Source: a virus. Taken from it: DNA of 64,000 bases. A model generated the notes under the pieces. It was not told the origin of the DNA, did no database searches, and was given only the letters and a program-made list of their open reading frames with translations. Position 1 is the stretch's first letter. Every line of letters begins with the position of its first letter. The stretch is taken from the IMG/VR virus record IMGVR_UViG_3300045988_147882, one strand, 5' to 3'. Made by a program: the position numbers and the translations under genes. This document shows positions 3,616 through 58,625 of the stretch, piece after piece.

Positions 3616-3686
3616 GGTGATGTAGCTTAGTTGGTTAGAGCGCATGTTTCTACATGAGGTCGGCGGTTCGAATCCGTTCATCACTT
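3616..3686 (+). tRNA. tRNA-like gene 1 (71 nt): canonical acceptor/D/T arms, 14-nt mini anticodon arm
   Basis: GGTGATG-TA-GCTT-AGTTGGTTA-GAGC-G-CATGT-TTCT-ACATG-AGGTC-GGCGG-TTCGAAT-CCGTT-CATCACT-T. Confidence 0.55.
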
Positions 3687-3702: not shown

Positions 3703-4149
3703 TTACAACTGCGTGTATATCTTATAAATTGCATAGGCTGTTAAACTAATAATAAAGAATAGAAATGAAATGTAGGAAATTGACTCACAAATTGCGAAGA
3801 TTTTATTGCGTGGTACGGCTGGCGTTACGGTCATTTTGGAATTGTATAAGCTATAGAGGATATATTCTTCTACCCGTTTTTGAGCGTTGCGTATCATCAC
3901 GTTGCTCATTGCTCGATTCTCGTATATGGTTATACACGAAAAAAGGATGGATAGTGCGTTTGAACATATTACCACCAATAGTAAAATTCGACTGCAAGCG
4001 TTGTTGGTTGAAAGATTGCTTAAAGAAACAAGTACAGCAAAAGTAGCAGATGCAACAGTCAACAGAGTGCTTTGGAGTCTGAAAGTCCATTCGATTTTTT
4101 TCTCTAAAGTTTCTTTGTAGTATGAAACTACTTTTTCTTCATTATTCAT
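3703..4149 (-). CDS. integral membrane protein (148 aa), opposite-strand moron
   Basis: ORF with 3-4 hydrophobic helices; the competing overlapping ORFs are shorter and low-complexity. Confidence 0.6.
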   Translation of the reverse strand: MNNEEKVVSYYKETLEKKIEWTFRLQSTLLTVASATFAVLVSLSNLSTNNACSRILLLVVICSNALSILFSCITIYENRAMSNVMIRNAQKRVEEYILYSLYNSKMTVTPAVPRNKIFAICESISYISFLFFIISLTAYAIYKIYTQL

Positions 4150-4160
4150 ATTTTTCTTGT

Positions 4161-4235
4161 TTTTTGATTTGACACTTCAAAAATAAGAAAATCCCCCGTT
4201 CCTTTTTTATTAGCGAATAATCTTGGAACGGGAAA
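4161..4235 (+). promoter_or_regulatory. Repeated leader element copy 1 (conserved box plus hairpin CCCGTTCC/GGAACGGG)
   Basis: The box TTTTTGATTTGACACTTCAAAAATAAGAAAATCCCCCG is shared with 4471-4508. Confidence 0.4.
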
Positions 4236-4795: not shown

Positions 4796-5050
4796 ATGAT
4801 TAGAGGTGAAATGGCTGAAATATTGCTAGATAATATTCTCCGTCTGTTTTCTACAGAGACATTCGGAAAAGATAAGTCTGCATATTATGTAGGTGGGGAA
4901 AAGAAATTGATGAATCTTATAGAAGCGGGTAAGATTGAAAGTGATAAGCCTGTAAATGCTCAAAATGGTAAATGGCACTGTAATGCTGCTCAGGTATTAC
5001 TTCATTGCCGATGCGCTAAGAAAGTCAAACGTAAAAAACGGAAGAAATGA
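4796..5050 (+). CDS. hypothetical protein with basic C-terminal tail (KKVKRKKRKK)
   Basis: The ORF track starts at TTG 4784; the first ATG is at 4796. Confidence 0.45.
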   Translation: MIRGEMAEILLDNILRLFSTETFGKDKSAYYVGGEKKLMNLIEAGKIESDKPVNAQNGKWHCNAAQVLLHCRCAKKVKRKKRKK

Positions 5051-5294: not shown

Positions 5295-5365
5295 GCCGGG
5301 ATAGCCCAGTTGGTTAGAGCGCATGTTTCTACATGAGGTCAGCGGTTCGAATCCGTTTCCCGGCT
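5295..5365 (+). tRNA. tRNA-like gene 2 (71 nt): same body as gene 1, different acceptor stem
   Basis: GCCGGGA-TA-GCCC-AGTTGGTTA-GAGC-G-CATGT-TTCT-ACATG-AGGTC-AGCGG-TTCGAAT-CCGTT-TCCCGGC-T. Confidence 0.55.
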
Positions 5366-5461: not shown

Positions 5462-5559
5462 GAAGGAATGGCGGAATTGGTAGACGCAAGTATGCAGATA
5501 GATTGAAGAAAGTCATACATAGGTAATCTGTCATCCCGGTTCGAGTCCGGGTTCCTTCA
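5462..5559 (+). tRNA. tRNA-like gene 3 (98 nt): Leu-like D arm, 46-nt irregular central region
   Basis: GAAGGAA-TG-GCGGAATTGGTAGACGC...CCCGG-TTCGAGT-CCGGG-TTCCTTC-A. No 5-7-5 hairpin was found in any register of the central region. Confidence 0.5.
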
Positions 5560-54746: not shown

Positions 54747-55535
54747 ATGACGAATGAACAAAGCGCAACGCTGCTTCGCTTGAATAAACAGGCACAAGTG
54801 GCAGCACTGAACGCCGTGGGCTTCTCGGATGTCACCGAGAATTCCCGCGCATCTGAATTTGGACAACGTATCAAGTGGGCCGCCGGTCTGCTTGATCTGC
54901 ATCTTGCCTGTAATCGTATTTCGGATAACTCCAAGGCATACTTTACTGCTGCCGAATGGAACTCCCTTACGCTCGCTAATAAGCAACTGTATATCAAACG
55001 TGGGCTTCGTATCCGTGCCCATGGACACTCCTTCGTAATCGCCGCCCAGGAGTGCTATAATGCCGATATGACTACTACCTTCTATTGGGGCGGTCAGGGT
55101 AAAGCCATAGACGGCCTGAACCAAAAAGGACTGGGTGCCATGTACGGCTGCTTCACGGGTGAGGAAGATACCGACCTGATTATCACCGGCCTGAAAGACC
55201 AAAACAATAGCGGTGTAATCGGTGCGCCGGCTGCCGAAGCCGCCCGTGCATACCGTGCCTACACTTTGGAAAGTGACGGTATCGAGGATGAATCCAACTG
55301 GTTCCTTCCTTCATCCGGCCAAATGCTTCTGATGTACCGCTACCGCGATAAAATCAATGAGATGATGCGTACCTTTTGGAGTAGTGACAGTATGCTGATG
55401 ACTGATAAATACTACTGGTCATCAACAATTTGGGATACTAACTCCGCCTGGGCGTTCGAACTGAATACCGGGCGTATTACGAATCAAAACAAAAATTCAG
55501 CCCTTCTTCATGTGAGAGCTGTTGCTTCCGAATAG
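54747..55535 (+). CDS. fibre-tip protein, non-diversified paralog of the DGR target (DUF1566/C-type-lectin-like C-terminus)
   Basis: Shares LLRLNKQ...TLESDGIED...YYWSST with the next gene but has no TR-matching segment. Confidence 0.7.
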   Translation: MTNEQSATLLRLNKQAQVAALNAVGFSDVTENSRASEFGQRIKWAAGLLDLHLACNRISDNSKAYFTAAEWNSLTLANKQLYIKRGLRIRAHGHSFVIAAQECYNADMTTTFYWGGQGKAIDGLNQKGLGAMYGCFTGEEDTDLIITGLKDQNNSGVIGAPAAEAARAYRAYTLESDGIEDESNWFLPSSGQMLLMYRYRDKINEMMRTFWSSDSMLMTDKYYWSSTIWDTNSAWAFELNTGRITNQNKNSALLHVRAVASE

Positions 55536-55560
55536 TATTAACTTAATATTATACAATAAA

Positions 55561-56370
55561 ATGGATAAAAATATCGCCAGCGCCATGCTTCTGCGCTTGA
55601 ATAAACAAGACCAGATAGAAGCCTTAAAATCAATAGGTTTTACAACCGTGAATGAAAACACCCCCGCAAGCGACATCGCCAAATATATGCAATGGTCAGG
55701 TACGCTTCTTGACCTTTCTTTGGCTACGCTCCGGATTGAAGACGGTGAACAAGTCTTTTTCACGGCTTCCGAATGGAACTCCATGAGCGCGAATAATCGC
55801 TCCAAGTATATCCGTATCGGCATCCGACTTCGCGCCGAATGCCACCAGTTCATTATCGCCAAAAGCGACTGCGTTGACGCAGGCGGCAATAAAACGTTCA
55901 AATGGGGTGGCTACGGAACTGACCTACGCGGCTTGAAAAACTACGGCAGTGGTAACCAAGGACTCTATGATACCTTCGACGGCAAGGAAAATACCGATGT
56001 TATAATAGAAACCCTTGCAGGCGTCAAGGACACCCAGGGAACTGTCGGCACCCCTGCCGCCGAAGTTGCCAGAGCCTATAAAGCCTGTACGCTTGAATCT
56101 GACGGAATTGAAGATACAACCGTGTGGAACCTGCCCGCATTGGGTGAACTTATGCTTATGGCCAAGTATAAAACCGAAATCAATGAGCTCATAACTTCTA
56201 TGTTTGGCAATCAAAATATATTTACAAACGACTGGTATTGGTCTAGTACCGAATATGACGCTTCCAGCAGTTGGTACGTGTACTTCGTCAGCGGCCACGT
56301 CAACGCGTACGGCCGCCAGTACGCGGGCCGGGTTCGTCCCCTCGCCGCAATAAACACTTTATCCCTTTAA
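55561..56370 (+). CDS. DGR target (variable) protein with C-terminal VR
   Basis: The last 37 codons contain a 91-nt segment matching the TR; Met at 55561 chosen within ORF 55522..56370. Confidence 0.8.
   Translation: MDKNIASAMLLRLNKQDQIEALKSIGFTTVNENTPASDIAKYMQWSGTLLDLSLATLRIEDGEQVFFTASEWNSMSANNRSKYIRIGIRLRAECHQFIIAKSDCVDAGGNKTFKWGGYGTDLRGLKNYGSGNQGLYDTFDGKENTDVIIETLAGVKDTQGTVGTPAAEVARAYKACTLESDGIEDTTVWNLPALGELMLMAKYKTEINELITSMFGNQNIFTNDWYWSSTEYDASSSWYVYFVSGHVNAYGRQYAGRVRPLAAINTLSL
56260..56350 (+). repeat. DGR variable repeat (VR)
   Basis: 91 nt aligned without gaps to 57017-57107. There are 14 mismatches, and the 3' 29 nt are identical and GC-rich (IMH-like). Confidence 0.85.
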
Positions 56371-56397
56371 TTCTTTGTCCCTTAGATAGTTAGCTAA

Positions 56398-56425
56398 ATA
56401 AAAGCCCCGGCAGGGGCTTTTTAGC
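56398..56425 (+). terminator. GC hairpin with 4-nt loop plus T tract downstream of VR (terminator and/or DGR target-recognition hairpin)
   Basis: aaaGCCCC-ggca-GGGGCttttt. Confidence 0.6.
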
Positions 56426-56516
56426 TTCACTTTTTTGAGCTAAAATTGTGTTAATTGCTTTACAGTTATTAACTTTGCCCCCTCTAATACATACATTAAA
56501 ATATTAAAAAATTAAC

Positions 56517-56924
56517 ATGGCACTTACACAAGACCTTCCTATATCAAATTCGATGTATAAGCTTCTGAACCTTATCATTGATGCCCGGCAACAATTCCCC
56601 AAGGCGTTCCGGTATGAATTTGGTACGGAGTTGATGATGCTTGCCGTTCATTGTTGCGAATATATCCGTTATGCAAATACAGATATGAACCTTGAGCATC
56701 GTGCAGATTATCTGATGAAGTTTTTGTGTGAGTTTGATGCATTGAAATTACTGCTAAGAGTGTGTGAAGAACGACATTTGACCAGCCTGACTCAAACTGC
56801 CGAAATCTGTCTGCTTGCAGAGAGCATCGGTAAGCAAAGTACCGGTTGGTACAAAAAAACGGTTGCAGATCTCCAACGGCAAAAAGCTAACGGATCGCAA
56901 CAAGTCGCAAAGCCGGAGTCATAA
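56517..56924 (+). CDS. avd: DGR accessory variability determinant (Avd, four-helix-bundle family)
   Basis: 135 aa helical protein between the target and TR/RT, with a basic C-terminal part (GKQSTGWYKK). Confidence 0.7.
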   Translation: MALTQDLPISNSMYKLLNLIIDARQQFPKAFRYEFGTELMMLAVHCCEYIRYANTDMNLEHRADYLMKFLCEFDALKLLLRVCEERHLTSLTQTAEICLLAESIGKQSTGWYKKTVADLQRQKANGSQQVAKPES

Positions 56925-56938
56925 TCGCCAAGGGGATT

Positions 56939-58360
56939 ATGAGTGAGCAATTAGAATTATTTATTGGGCATCCCCCCGGTGATGAGCCGGGAAAGACTAA
57001 GATAGCGGATGCAACGGCTTCCAGCAGTTGGAACGTGAACTTCAACAACGGCAGCGTCTACACGAACTACCGCCAGGGCGCGGGCCGGGTTCGTCCCCTC
57101 GCCGCAACAGGTAATATAATCTATGACATACTTCTTAGCAGTATTTTCGAAGCATCCGAAGATTGTGCCAGACAGAAAAGAACGAGTACGGATTGTGTTG
57201 AGTTTTATAATGATTATCAGTCTGCATTGGTGCGGCTATGGTATTCTATTATTTACGGTGAATATGTACCGGACTTTTCAAAAGTATTCATACGGACTTA
57301 CCCGGTATATCGGGAGGTTTTTGCCGCCGCTTTCATTGATCGTGTTGTCCATCACTGGATCGCTCTTCGTATCGAGCCGATTTTAGAGGAACGTTTTCGG
57401 GAACAAGGGAACGTCTCGAAGAACTGCCGGAAAGGTGAGGGATGTCTGTCTGCCGTGCACTATCTGAATAACATGATAGTCGAGGTCAGTGAGAATTATA
57501 CTGCCGATGCGTACATTTTCAAAGATGACCTGTTTAGTTTCTTCATGTCTATCTCGAAATCGTTGGTATGGGAAATGCTGAACATATTCGTAAGGGACAA
57601 TTATAAAGGCGATGATATTGAATGTCTGCTTTACCTTCTAGCCGTTACTATCTTTCATTGTCCACAAAATAAGTGTATCAGACGCTCTCCCGTCTCCATG
57701 TGGGACAAACTTCCCAGTAATAAAAGTCTGTTTCATAATGACCCTGACAGGGGAGTGGCTATCGGGAACCTGCCGTCGCAACTCATAGCCAACTTTCTGG
57801 CGTCTGTATATGATTATTTCGTGATGGAAATACTGGGATTCATATATTATGTACGCTTTGTTGATGACTTTTGTATCGTAGTGAAATCACCGGAAGAAAT
57901 ATTGTCCAAAGTCCATCTTCTTGATGGTTTCCTGAAAGAACAACTCCTTTTACGGTTGCATCCACGCAAACTGTATCTTCAGCATTATAAAAAAGGAGTC
58001 TTGTTTGTAGGGGCGTTCATTTTGCCTGGTAGAATTTATGTATCTAACAGGGTGGTTGGTAACACATATAACGCTGTCAGGAAATTTAATAGAATAGCTG
58101 AAAATGGATTTGCAGAAGCGTATGTTGAGAAGTTTGTGAGTACGATGAACTCTTATTATGGCCTGATGAAACACTTTGCAACGTACAATATCCGCCGTAA
58201 AATTGCAGCGATGTTGCTTCCTGAATGGTGGGAATATGTTTATATCGAAGGACATTTTGAAAAGTTTGTATTGAAGAATAAATATAACCATAGAAAACAA
58301 CTAATTAAACATATCAAAAAACATGGATCAAAAAAATATCTTACCGCGTGGGATTGCTAA
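56939..58360 (+). CDS. DGR reverse transcriptase (the ORF includes the TR in its 5' part)
   Basis: IGNLPSQ (DGR-type [ILV]GxxxSQ), YVRFVDDF (YxDD box) and DRVVHHW. Confidence 0.9.
   Translation: MSEQLELFIGHPPGDEPGKTKIADATASSSWNVNFNNGSVYTNYRQGAGRVRPLAATGNIIYDILLSSIFEASEDCARQKRTSTDCVEFYNDYQSALVRLWYSIIYGEYVPDFSKVFIRTYPVYREVFAAAFIDRVVHHWIALRIEPILEERFREQGNVSKNCRKGEGCLSAVHYLNNMIVEVSENYTADAYIFKDDLFSFFMSISKSLVWEMLNIFVRDNYKGDDIECLLYLLAVTIFHCPQNKCIRRSPVSMWDKLPSNKSLFHNDPDRGVAIGNLPSQLIANFLASVYDYFVMEILGFIYYVRFVDDFCIVVKSPEEILSKVHLLDGFLKEQLLLRLHPRKLYLQHYKKGVLFVGAFILPGRIYVSNRVVGNTYNAVRKFNRIAENGFAEAYVEKFVSTMNSYYGLMKHFATYNIRRKIAAMLLPEWWEYVYIEGHFEKFVLKNKYNHRKQLIKHIKKHGSKKYLTAWDC
57017..57107 (+). repeat. DGR template repeat (TR)
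   Basis: Lies between avd and the RT core and retains five AAC codons. 9 of its 19 adenines differ from the VR. Confidence 0.8.
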
Positions 58361-58601
58361 GCCTATCGAGCAACAGCCGGACGGAACCTGGATTGTGCGT
58401 CATCACTTCCGGGTGGTTGGTACCAATGAGAATGGTGAGGAACTAGTAACTTTTGCCAGTTCGGAATATCCCGAGAAACCTACCTTGCAACAGATTCAAA
58501 GAAGTATTGACCGCTATCGGGTGTGTCTAACAATGTATGGAGATACAATTTCAGACGAAATAGAAAAGGTTGATCTTTCCGTGTATATGTTTACGGATTA
58601 A
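58323..58601 (+). CDS. hypothetical protein (92 aa) overlapping the RT 3' end
   Basis: ORF with a terminator directly downstream. Confidence 0.45.
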   Translation: MDQKNILPRGIAKPIEQQPDGTWIVRHHFRVVGTNENGEELVTFASSEYPEKPTLQQIQRSIDRYRVCLTMYGDTISDEIEKVDLSVYMFTD

Positions 58602-58625
58602 TAGTTCAATTTGTTGGTTGTTTTA

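Follow-up and report, generated by a model that had tools for sequence, protein, structure and literature searches.

The window analysed here, a 64,000-nucleotide stretch of viral DNA (IMG/VR record IMGVR_UViG_3300045988_147882), holds a DGR whose template (TR) has itself received adenine-mutagenised information at five ancestral AAC codons, while the copy in the target gene (VR) still carries the product of the ancestral template. That the TR was recently derived and that AAC is the ancestral codon are shown by comparison with related loci, and the base calls rest on assembly. The system is a known one; a reverse flow of information into the template was not found described in the literature searched. 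The features of the locus are as follows.

55561..56370, + strand: DGR target gene, 269 aa, with a C-type-lectin-like Lcl_C domain (ORF call)
56260..56350, + strand: VR, with its variable part at 56275-56327 (alignment to the TR and the consensus TR)
56322..56350, + strand: VR 3' block (IMH-like), identical to the TR block
56377, + strand: A>G SNP in the spacer between VR and hairpin, a strain marker
56400..56421, + strand: hairpin, AAAAGCCCC-GGCA-GGGGCTTTT, GC-rich and followed by a T run (read off the sequence)
56517..56924, + strand: avd (accessory variability determinant), 135 aa (Pfam PF22296 bAvd)
56939..58360, + strand: RT ORF, 473 aa from the ATG at 56939, with the conserved RT part from ~57107
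57017..57107, + strand: TR, derived allele, in frame within the 473-aa RT ORF
57054..57084, + strand: derived TR tract, 3'-anchored (set against the consensus TR found at 134 loci)
57079..57107, + strand: TR 3' block, same as the VR block, without IMH*-type mismatches

Target gene, avd, TR and RT are all present, and the locus reads as an intact prophage DGR, with RT-dependent homing inferred. The target gene lies directly 3' of the tail module, carries the VR at its 3' end and is likewise called as a 269-aa gene in isolate genomes. Its protein matches PHROG 4245 and, at residues 171-260 of 269, Pfam PF07603 Lcl_C (37.4 bits, cut-off 34.9). This domain match places the VR at the C-terminus of a C-type-lectin-like protein, the fold itself being inferred from the profile match. 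The avd product narrowly passes its Pfam cut-off (40.8 bits against 40), its gene adjoins the TR, and an identical copy of the protein is recorded in 54,951 blocks of public assemblies.

The 473-aa ORF meets the criterion for a DGR-type RT on several grounds. Its Pfam RVT_1 match (E 1.2e-5, 25.6 bits) falls below the 29.6-bit cut-off, but it shares 37-64% identity with Bacteroides phage RTs and 97-100% with those in 58 IMG/VR contigs, and its translation holds an IGNLPSQ motif and an FVDD catalytic box. The pattern [LIV]GxxxSQ is a signature of DGR RTs. The avd and RT genes are both intact, and relatives have identical versions.

Within the window, VR and TR share a 3' block of 29 nt (23 nt when the VR is compared with the consensus TR). 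Homology stops abruptly after 56350, and the sequences beyond the repeats are unrelated. The hairpin at 56400-56421 has a 9-bp stem and a 4-nt loop and begins 30 nt past the target stop codon and 50 nt past the end of the repeat. Judged from sequence alone, it is likely a terminator, and it may possibly double as the DGR target hairpin.

When VR 56260-56350 is aligned without gaps to TR 57017-57107 (offset 757), 14 mismatches are found, nine at TR adenines and five at G or T. The rule that differences between a VR and the TR beside it are confined to TR adenines therefore fails at this locus. The five exceptions are 57054 G facing 56297 A, 57059 T facing 56302 A, 57068 T facing 56311 G, and 57077-57078 GG facing 56320-56321 TA. 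They fall into four codons of the target-gene frame, which read AGC, TAC, TAC and GGC in the TR and CAC, AAC, GGC and TAC in the VR. Among relatives with the consensus TR, 93 VR/TR pairs in register place 979 of 985 differences at adenines; each pair has at most one non-adenine mismatch, against five in the window. This pattern is far beyond chance, with the caveat that the base calls rest on assembly.

The non-adenine mismatches arise because the change happened on the TR side. A single consensus TR is found in 134 of 149 related loci, with AAC at all five codons that are altered in the window. Compared with this consensus, the window TR has seven differences, all at adenines (57054 G, 57059 T, 57068 T, 57077-57078 GG and 57083-57084 GG), which turn the five AAC codons into AGC, TAC, TAC, GGC and GGC. 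The window VR differs from the same consensus at 13 positions, again all at adenines. At the level of the lineage, the adenine criterion of a DGR is thus met, by the pairs of relatives and by the window VR alike.

The closest comparison comes from L234, a contig of the same strain. It has the consensus TR without the seven derived bases, yet it shares the window's two otherwise private SNPs. One of these, A>G at 56377, occurs in the window alone among 87 loci and was otherwise seen only in L234. Over ~5.4 kb the two are identical except for the VR, one SNP and the seven TR positions, that SNP being the only one in ~5.2 kb outside the VR. Together with the consensus relatives, L234 identifies the window TR as the derived copy.

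An earlier note, made by a model without database searches, had described the five non-adenine differences, read the four discordant codons as descendants of AAC in both copies, and suggested that the TR had received adenine-mutagenised information. The differences and their coordinates held exactly, as did the codon reading in the target-gene frame, the AAC ancestor and the suggestion itself. A worry that an indel had shifted the alignment was not borne out, since window TR and VR each match the consensus TR at all 65 non-adenine positions and no indel is needed. The note would have been refuted had relatives shown this TR to be ancestral and invariant; the outcome was the opposite. What it missed is a fifth AAC-derived TR codon, GGC at 57083-57085, which a comparison of TR with VR cannot reveal, as the VR reads GGC there too.

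The window is not an isolated case. Independent TR alleles with multi-adenine tracts number eight among the 149 loci (~5%, window included); in these eight, 41 of 41 changes fall at adenines and every tract is 3'-anchored. Across all 12 variant TR alleles, adenines account for 43 of 45 changes (binomial P 2e-21). Of the nine alleles with adenine changes, eight have their 5'-most TR change no earlier than repeat position 37, the exception being the single-site allele L187, whereas in 80 of 80 VRs it falls no later than position 30 (TR vs VR, Mann-Whitney P 9e-9). Common descent of the variant TRs was considered and rejected, as the nearest flanking haplotype of each carries the consensus TR. 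The derived state, adenine specificity, 3' anchoring, recurrence and independence of these events are shown.

In five relatives (L015, L039, L172, L173 and L190), that is, in five of the seven multi-site alleles other than the window, the TR tract reproduces the neighbouring VR exactly. This identity extends to adenines that did not change. Across the seven concordant alleles, only 2 of the 19 adenines kept in the TR tract have changed in the VR, where 9.1 would be expected (P 6.5e-4), compared with 46 of 94 in the 5' part of the same alleles (Fisher P 0.002 against the tract). Such identity between tract and VR favours faithful DNA copying over a fresh mutagenic round. A criterion of an invariant TR with one-way flow is therefore not met in this lineage, given eight multi-adenine tracts in 149 loci and five that equal the neighbouring VR. 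The VR-to-TR direction in the concordant relatives is inferred by parsimony; no sibling was found that pairs the consensus TR with the same VR tract, which would prove it. The window is the only multi-site allele whose TR tract disagrees with its own VR.

Normal flow from TR to VR also operates. Four relatives carry single TR substitutions that resemble ordinary mutations, two of them at non-adenines (L133 G65T and L245 C35T), and each of these two reappears in its own VR. The multi-adenine TR alleles found in relatives all come from metagenome assemblies; among ~30 isolate genomes there were none against ~1.6 expected, a difference that is not significant. Exact-protein look-ups found neither the window's 473-aa RT ORF, which includes the TR-coded peptide, nor its target protein on record; no second sample with the window TR allele came to light.

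The favoured explanation is gene conversion from VR to TR. In this reading, the 3' portion of the template between 57054 and the block shared with the VR would have been overwritten by a diversified, adenine-mutagenised version, so that diversified information would flow backwards into the template. The route would be homology-directed, faithful copying from a diversified VR, beginning in the 23-29-bp shared 3' block and running a variable distance 5'-wards. Since the window tract disagrees with its own VR, either the donor was another VR and template and VR have become uncoupled, or mutagenised cDNA homed into the TR. Under gene conversion, the donor would not be the present neighbour. It may have been the VR of a co-resident or sibling prophage, or the resident VR may later have been replaced, whether a canonical TR homed into it in trans or a sibling genome recombined with it.

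Several observations make such uncoupling plausible. The nearest relatives of the cassette change from segment to segment along it; in B. congonensis, a VR was written from the TR of the other resident prophage; and two isolate genomes carry two prophage copies (one of them GCA_024792145.1). Recombination between VR and TR is itself recorded in seven contigs, which link the 5' flank of the target to the RT through one hybrid repeat and lack avd. A donor VR for the window tract was sought, and the closest, that of L205, is identical from repeat position 39 onwards; it was dismissed as evidence, as codon frequencies give an estimated one-in-ten probability of such a match by chance. Against gene conversion, the resident VR cannot explain the window tract without a second event, whereas self-retrohoming needs only one. 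Taken whole, with the uncoupling of the VR included, gene conversion is a little more likely to be wrong than right, yet it remains the most likely of the routes given. The donor, the enzymology and the order of events are inferred.

Self-retrohoming is a possible alternative. Here, mutagenised cDNA made from TR RNA would have integrated into the TR itself, replacing its 3' 50-odd nt, and directionality would be leaky because the 3' block of the TR is identical to that of the VR. In its favour, one event suffices for the window, as the tract would be an independent A>N set with no relation to the resident VR, and the latter still mirrors the ancestral template. Partial tracts anchored at the 3' end fit the published pattern of DGR transfer (PMC3240598, PMC5758913), the repeats' 3' blocks are identical with homology simply ending and no mismatched IMH*, and the TR substitutions (29 G, 10 T, 4 C) have a spectrum similar to that of VRs (469 G, 289 T, 80 C). 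Nevertheless, the five exact copies among the seven other multi-site tracts, kept adenines included (P 6.5e-4), are not what self-homing followed by normal mutagenic rewriting of the VR predicts. As a main process it would also give many discordant loci, and only one is seen against five exact-copy loci. Complementarity between RNA downstream of the TR and the VR 3' region or flank, as in the BPP-1 primer model, was not above shuffled controls.

A third explanation, that the master template lies elsewhere, is unlikely. It supposes that a second, canonical prophage copy in the host writes the window VR in trans, leaving the window TR as a decaying and possibly unused template. This would account for the VR and not for the changes in the TR, and it complements gene conversion and self-retrohoming. 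In support, the window VR is adenine-only against the consensus TR (13 of 13), and GCA_024792145.1 has two prophage copies. A VR of B. congonensis has flanks of a divergent lineage on both sides and yet bears markers of the consensus TR, which the second prophage of that host possesses. On the other hand, writing of the window VR in cis, ahead of the change in the TR, is just as possible, and the window's avd and RT are intact and the same as in relatives. No second TR or VR was found within the 64-kb window, the next-best match reaching 31 of 65 non-adenine positions.

An assembly artefact, in which the TR tract or the pairing of TR and VR was stitched together from mixed VR variants or co-existing strains, is very unlikely. 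In its favour, VR and TR, each a repeat of 91 nt, lie 757 nt apart and have identical sequence between them, near-identical strains such as L234 exist, and some related contigs have the look of assembly errors (partial VR duplications, VR/TR hybrids). The multi-adenine alleles of relatives are, moreover, metagenome-derived without exception, and the window's own base calls rest on assembly. However, a VR tract between TR-specific flanks requires two switches of graph path, and the shared nucleotides at those switches amount to only 23 at the 3' side and, in relatives, 4-14 at the 5' side, below assembler k-mers. De Bruijn-graph chimeras were judged unlikely on account of these 4-14-nt shared stretches at the crossovers, and collapse of a whole bubble would carry over all of the VR interior, unlike the tracts observed. 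The same TR allele and VR also occur in two differently assembled records (L015 and L195), and the L206 allele sits on a 1.7-Mb contig, for which long-read assembly is inferred from the contig name only. Furthermore, if the TR allele is in the majority within its sample, the linked VR is expected to be in the majority too.

Ordinary point mutation in the TR, the VR or both is all but excluded: four relatives do show single TR substitutions of that kind, but the window has seven private changes in 31 nt against two in the other ~3.8 kb (compared with 86 loci), and all seven lie at adenines of AAC codons, as part of the 41 of 41 across the eight multi-site alleles.

The earlier note had offered three mechanisms and doubted point mutation. 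That doubt held, on the density of private changes and the adenine counts. Recombination with a diversified VR gains direct support from the VR-identical tracts of relatives, retrohoming into the TR remains live and is economical for the window locus, and a master template elsewhere is a real possibility in view of B. congonensis, albeit without a second TR in the window. Which of these acted at the window is unsettled.

The reference system is the DGR of Bordetella phage BPP-1 (mtd-avd-TR-brt). The two share the same parts in the same order, a C-type-lectin-like target with a 3' VR, and adenine-specific transfer that starts at a fixed 3' point and stops at a variable one on the 5' side. Each also has a GC-rich hairpin downstream of the target, that of the window with only a possible role in targeting. 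Published work describes such transfer as needing only short homology at its variable 5' end (PMC3240598, PMC5758913). In BPP-1, the TR 'remains unchanged', and direction is set by a 21-bp IMH with five mismatches to IMH* (PMC3240598). In contrast, the window TR and VR have identical 3' blocks beyond which homology breaks off, so the criterion of an IMH/IMH* difference is not met. The window hairpin is also 50 nt away and terminator-like, its TR lies in frame inside the RT ORF, and adenine-mutagenised tracts occur in the TR itself in 8 of 149 natural alleles. BPP-1 is reported to have been given a mutable TR by Doulatov et al. (2004), who reportedly supplied the TR with the IMH of the VR. An engineered TR with a VR-type 3' end matches the self-retrohoming alternative. 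The window case differs in being natural and recurrent, and most cases resemble faithful copying of the VR more than new mutagenesis.

Other DGRs have been reported with identical predicted IMH and IMH*, for which recognition must extend downstream (Wu et al. 2018, PMC5758913). The window element fits this subset, but no TR change was reported there, unlike in the lineage described here. Surveys have also found differences that are not A-to-N, in 23% of DGRs in one study (Wu et al. 2018, PMC5758913) and in 46% of TR-VR pairs in another, where TR guanines most often face VR adenines (Yan 2019, PMC6642488). The window shares this phenomenon, with 5 of 14 mismatches of this type, among them TR G opposite VR A. 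One survey ascribes such differences to RT misincorporation, integration errors or independent mutation (Wu et al. 2018, PMC5758913), and across the literature searched they are blamed on RT infidelity, integration errors or sequencing errors. Unlike in these readings, the cause in the window is a TR-side change at former adenines and not infidelity on the VR side. Nothing relevant on natural TR mutagenesis, gene conversion between TR and VR or TR polymorphism was found in the literature searched, and this absence is not proof of novelty.

The window element is a Bacteroides prophage of ~60-66 kb and is extremely common; strains with its canonical form include B. xylanisolvens XB1A and B. acidifaciens DSM 15896. 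With Bacteroides phages F1, F2, F4 and BS-TP1, hankyphage and Quimbyvirus it shares the host genus, the gut setting, a phage-borne DGR and a lectin-fold target, and its RT is 37-42% identical to those of F1, F2, F4 and BS-TP1. Neither the cassette nor the head module had a nucleotide match in the phage collection, and no record exceeds 43% identity to the large terminase.

For the window phage, the derived tract fixes residues of the Ser/Tyr/Tyr/Gly/Gly type at five positions. The template keeps 14 of 21 variable adenines, and the protein repertoire it codes for is cut ~12,000-fold by our arithmetic. DGRs are at present described with a TR that stays constant as the master copy and with information passing solely from TR to VR (PMC3240598). 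A bolder reading, which is possible, is that DGR templates are not fixed masters and that diversified sequence regularly returns to them where the 3' ends are identical, whether through true retrohoming into the TR or through copying of a selected VR. A related reading, extrapolated beyond this lineage, is that part of the non-adenine TR/VR differences in surveys stems from changes on the TR side. If so, those mismatches would need to be re-read against the ancestral TR. DGR detection software scores candidates by adenine-only mismatches.

If the bolder reading is true, a template could be 'updated', locking in residues that worked and narrowing the search to the remaining adenines, and templates would be tunable by feedback from selected variants. 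They could also decay, because lost adenines cannot return by the same route; unchecked, the process would be a one-way ratchet eroding the template, which selection must purge. This would bear on the useful lifetime of a DGR and on why most alleles stay consensus. Directionality would be leaky when IMH equals IMH*, and those engineering DGRs for directed evolution should expect corruption of the template where TR and target have identical 3' ends. The ~150 natural alleles of this very abundant gut prophage provide a data set on template change, and the question of how cDNA finds its target would become testable in a natural system.

A complete DGR lies on the + strand of this region. It follows immediately on the tail module of a tailed phage, whose products include a large terminase, a tape measure protein and a tail protein of 2057 aa.

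Features of the DGR and its neighbouring paralog
54747-55535, + strand: non-diversified paralog of the target (Lcl_C)
55561-56370, + strand: target gene (Lcl_C, 37.4 bits vs a cut-off of 34.9)
56260-56350, + strand: variable repeat (VR), inside the target gene
56400-56421, + strand: terminator-like hairpin
56517-56924, + strand: avd (bAvd)
56939-58360, + strand: RT ORF, containing IGNLPSQ and FVDD
57017-57107, + strand: template repeat (TR)

The carrier of this element is a Bacteroides prophage, present in B. xylanisolvens XB1A, B. acidifaciens DSM 15896 and B. congonensis, and the element is also found on megabase-scale chromosome contigs in several NCBI genome assemblies. The prophage is very common: in public assemblies, 54,951 indexed blocks contain the identical Avd protein; no close named phage was found in the phage collection searched. 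The paralog immediately upstream of the target belongs to the same PHROG, no TR match was found at its 3' end, and it may be an old target or one never recruited. The TR itself lies in frame and stop-free within the 473-aa RT ORF (56939-57107), with no ATG in the window between it and the conserved RT N-terminus, and gene calls in isolate genomes are of the 473-aa form. Translation of the TR as an N-terminal extension of the RT is thus conceivable; the RT of the majority of distant relatives starts at an ATG of its own, downstream of the TR. Elsewhere on the + strand, hits at 3616-3686, 5295-5365 and 5462-5559 include two tRNA genes that score 57.8 and 54.7 bits against Rfam and share one core but differ in their acceptor stems; for these two, ARAGORN gives no anticodon (arm CATGT-TTCT-ACATG, a 5-bp stem and 4-nt loop); a third match nearby is weaker and longer.

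Aligned without gaps, the VR and TR mismatch at 14 positions; the TR base is adenine at nine of these and G or T at five. These five had been reported in the earlier note, whose positions and codons held exactly, and its worry about an indel-shifted alignment was ruled out, as no indel is involved and each repeat agrees with the family consensus at 65/65 non-adenine positions. Among 93 in-register VR/TR pairs from relatives, 979/985 differences fall at adenines, with at most one non-adenine mismatch in any pair. Five therefore lie far outside the normal behaviour of the element.

Related loci were gathered via the RT protein and a target-gene DNA pattern in IMG/VR, via the TR/RT junction in metagenome and genome collections, and via exact cassette proteins in public assemblies, giving 149 loci with a properly flanked TR after duplicates were removed. 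One identical consensus TR is shared by 134 of them, a second lineage consensus is found in three, and the other 12 are variants. At all four codons singled out in the note, and also at a fifth codon occupying repeat positions 66-68, the consensus reads AAC. Relative to it, seven bases are changed in the window TR (57054, 57059, 57068, 57077-78 and 57083-84), all adenines of AAC codons, and 13 in the window VR, again all adenines. The VR is therefore what the ancestral template would normally yield, and the change lies in the TR. The proposed check, reconstruction of the ancestral TR from relatives, thus showed the window TR to be derived, and the central inference made from the sequence alone, that the codons descend from AAC and that the TR copy had received adenine-mutagenised information, is supported by the relatives' consensus.

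The comparison with contig L234 (JGI 3300029766) is the clearest. Over 5.4 kb, the two sequences differ within the VR, at the seven TR positions (all consensus in L234) and at just one SNP elsewhere. Two SNPs outside the VR and TR are private to the window among 87 loci, 56377 A>G (in the spacer between VR and hairpin) and 57535 C>T (synonymous in the RT). L234 is the sole sharer of both, indicating that it is the same strain.

Other TR alleles have changed in a similar manner. Eight carry at least two changes (the window, L010, L015, which equals L195, L039, L172, L173, L190 and L206), and 41/41 of their changes lie at adenines that vary in VRs too. These changes are 3'-anchored, the 5'-most falling at repeat position 37 or beyond; in 80/80 VRs the first change falls at or before position 30. 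The nearest flanking haplotype of each variant allele carries the consensus TR, which makes the events independent and recent, and no variant allele was seen to recur in two independent samples. Four more alleles have a single change, two of them at non-adenines; each change is repeated in the neighbouring VR, flanked on either side by adenine changes. They look like ordinary mutations of the TR that were then transmitted to the VR in the usual direction, and their passage shows that the element is active in nature. Diversified tracts with A>G only were seen in the VR of locus L016 and in both the TR and VR tracts of L039 (8/8 in each); in the population as a whole, 56% of changes are to G, 34% to T and 10% to C, so the spectrum may vary between events.

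In five loci (L015, L039, L172, L173 and L190), the 5' part of the TR is consensus and a contiguous 3' tract matches the neighbouring VR base for base, with the crossover within a shared stretch of just 4-14 nt. If a mutagenised cDNA had hit the TR and the VR had then been rewritten from that altered TR, adenines retained in the tract would be VR-changed about half the time. Across seven concordant alleles only 2/19 were, vs 9.1 expected (P 6.5e-4), favouring faithful DNA-level copying between VR and TR; in the 5' part of the same alleles, 46/94 retained adenines were VR-changed (Fisher P 0.002 vs the tract). The direction, VR to TR, is inferred by parsimony, as adenine mutagenesis normally lands in the VR. 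The 3' anchoring is attributed to the sole long stretch of VR/TR identity, the 3' block of 23 nt; the 5' ends share only 15 nt. Seven contigs (L001, L041, L042, L136, L167, L177 and L193) run from the target 5' flank through a single hybrid repeat into the RT, with 757 bp including avd gone. These may represent deletion-type VR x TR recombination, although assembly collapse is not ruled out.

The window is an exception to this pattern. Its TR tract (AGC..TAC..AAC TAC..GGC..GGC) and its own VR (CAC..AAC..TAC GGC..TAC..GGC) disagree at four codons, and the VR as it now stands cannot derive from the current TR, as G>A and T>A/G would be needed. Gene conversion, in which diversified VR sequence would have overwritten the 3' tract of the TR, is the reading we favour without regarding it as probable. 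Because tract and VR disagree, conversion from the resident VR needs a second step: the donor may have been the VR of a co-resident or sibling prophage, the VR may have been rewritten later, in trans, from a canonical TR, or sibling genomes may have recombined within the 757 bp separating the repeats. All three have precedents, namely two copies of the prophage in each of two isolates, a VR in B. congonensis and a segment mosaic in the population.

The B. congonensis locus (L196, NZ_FQXY01000011.1; VR 4071-4161, TR 4828-4918) has a divergent-lineage TR, with TTC at repeat positions 5-7, T at 20 and CA at 31-32. Its VR has divergent-lineage flanks on both sides, yet consensus-lineage bases at all marker positions, and the second prophage of that genome (L198) has the consensus TR. 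This VR is likely a product of homing in trans between two resident DGRs. Similarly, when 54747-58607 is compared with 86 loci, the closest relative shifts by segment, from L010 for the paralog and target to L003, L005, L007 and L008 for the RT, a mosaic indicating that recombination among co-circulating prophages is frequent.

Alternatively, mutagenised cDNA may have homed into the window TR itself. Such self-retrohoming remains possible: it explains the window with one event, and it is mechanistically reasonable given that there are no IMH* mismatches and that the 3' blocks are identical, after which homology stops. The two readings are close, and gene conversion is slightly ahead only because it is directly supported in relatives. 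The exact donor of the tract remains unresolved.

An assembly artefact, in the TR tract or in the TR/VR pairing, is unlikely. In its favour, all multi-adenine TR alleles in relatives derive from metagenome assemblies, none occurs among ~30 isolate genomes (~1.6 expected), and strain mixing could give the TR/VR discordance in the window, though not the TR tract. However, assembler k-mers are far longer than the crossover stretches, a whole-bubble collapse would carry over all of the VR interior rather than just its 3' part, and the L015 and L195 records of one TR allele come from different assembling groups. The L206 allele lies on a 1.7-Mb contig, a long-read assembly being inferred from the contig name only. 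Ordinary mutation of the window TR is excluded by seven changes in 31 nt vs one in ~5.2 kb in the L234 comparison.

Beside consensus TRs, 16/109 VRs differ in length from the TR (L004, L021, L034, L055, L128, L134, L138, L146, L147, L164, L166, L181, L183, L186, L234 and L237), and the VR of L039 (stitched with L228) was also grouped with them. Those measured (n=14) range from -24 to +31 nt relative to the TR, nine being out of frame, and three are partial duplications, carrying an additional 3' tract of ~55-60 nt appended to the first rather than in place of it. Aberrant homing or assembly of mixed VR variants could account for them.

In parts and behaviour the element belongs with DGRs of the BPP-1 type; in BPP-1 itself, mismatches between IMH and IMH* set direction. 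It departs from the textbook DGR in that its IMH* does not differ from its IMH, the hairpin lies far from the repeat, the TR is in frame inside the RT ORF and the template is not invariant. Wu et al. (PMC5758913) flagged identical IMH/IMH* as requiring downstream discrimination. Non-adenine TR/VR differences have been reported in 23% of DGRs (PMC5758913) and 46% of TR-VR pairs (PMC6642488), with TR guanines most often opposite VR adenines (PMC6642488), the outcome expected of a TR-side A>G change.

The window TR keeps 14/21 variable adenines, and by our own arithmetic its coded repertoire falls from ~2e12 to ~2e8 protein variants. As non-adenines are copied faithfully, lost adenines cannot be recovered in this way. 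From the dominance of the consensus (134/149) and the singleton status of each variant, we infer that variant TR alleles may be short-lived. No report of natural adenine-mutagenised TRs or of VR-to-TR copying was found in the limited literature searched. While the DGR is a known kind of system, reverse information flow into its template is thus likely undescribed, with the caveat that the base calls rest on assembled sequence. The window shows diversified information flowing back into a DGR template, contrary to the one-way description of TR-to-VR transfer.
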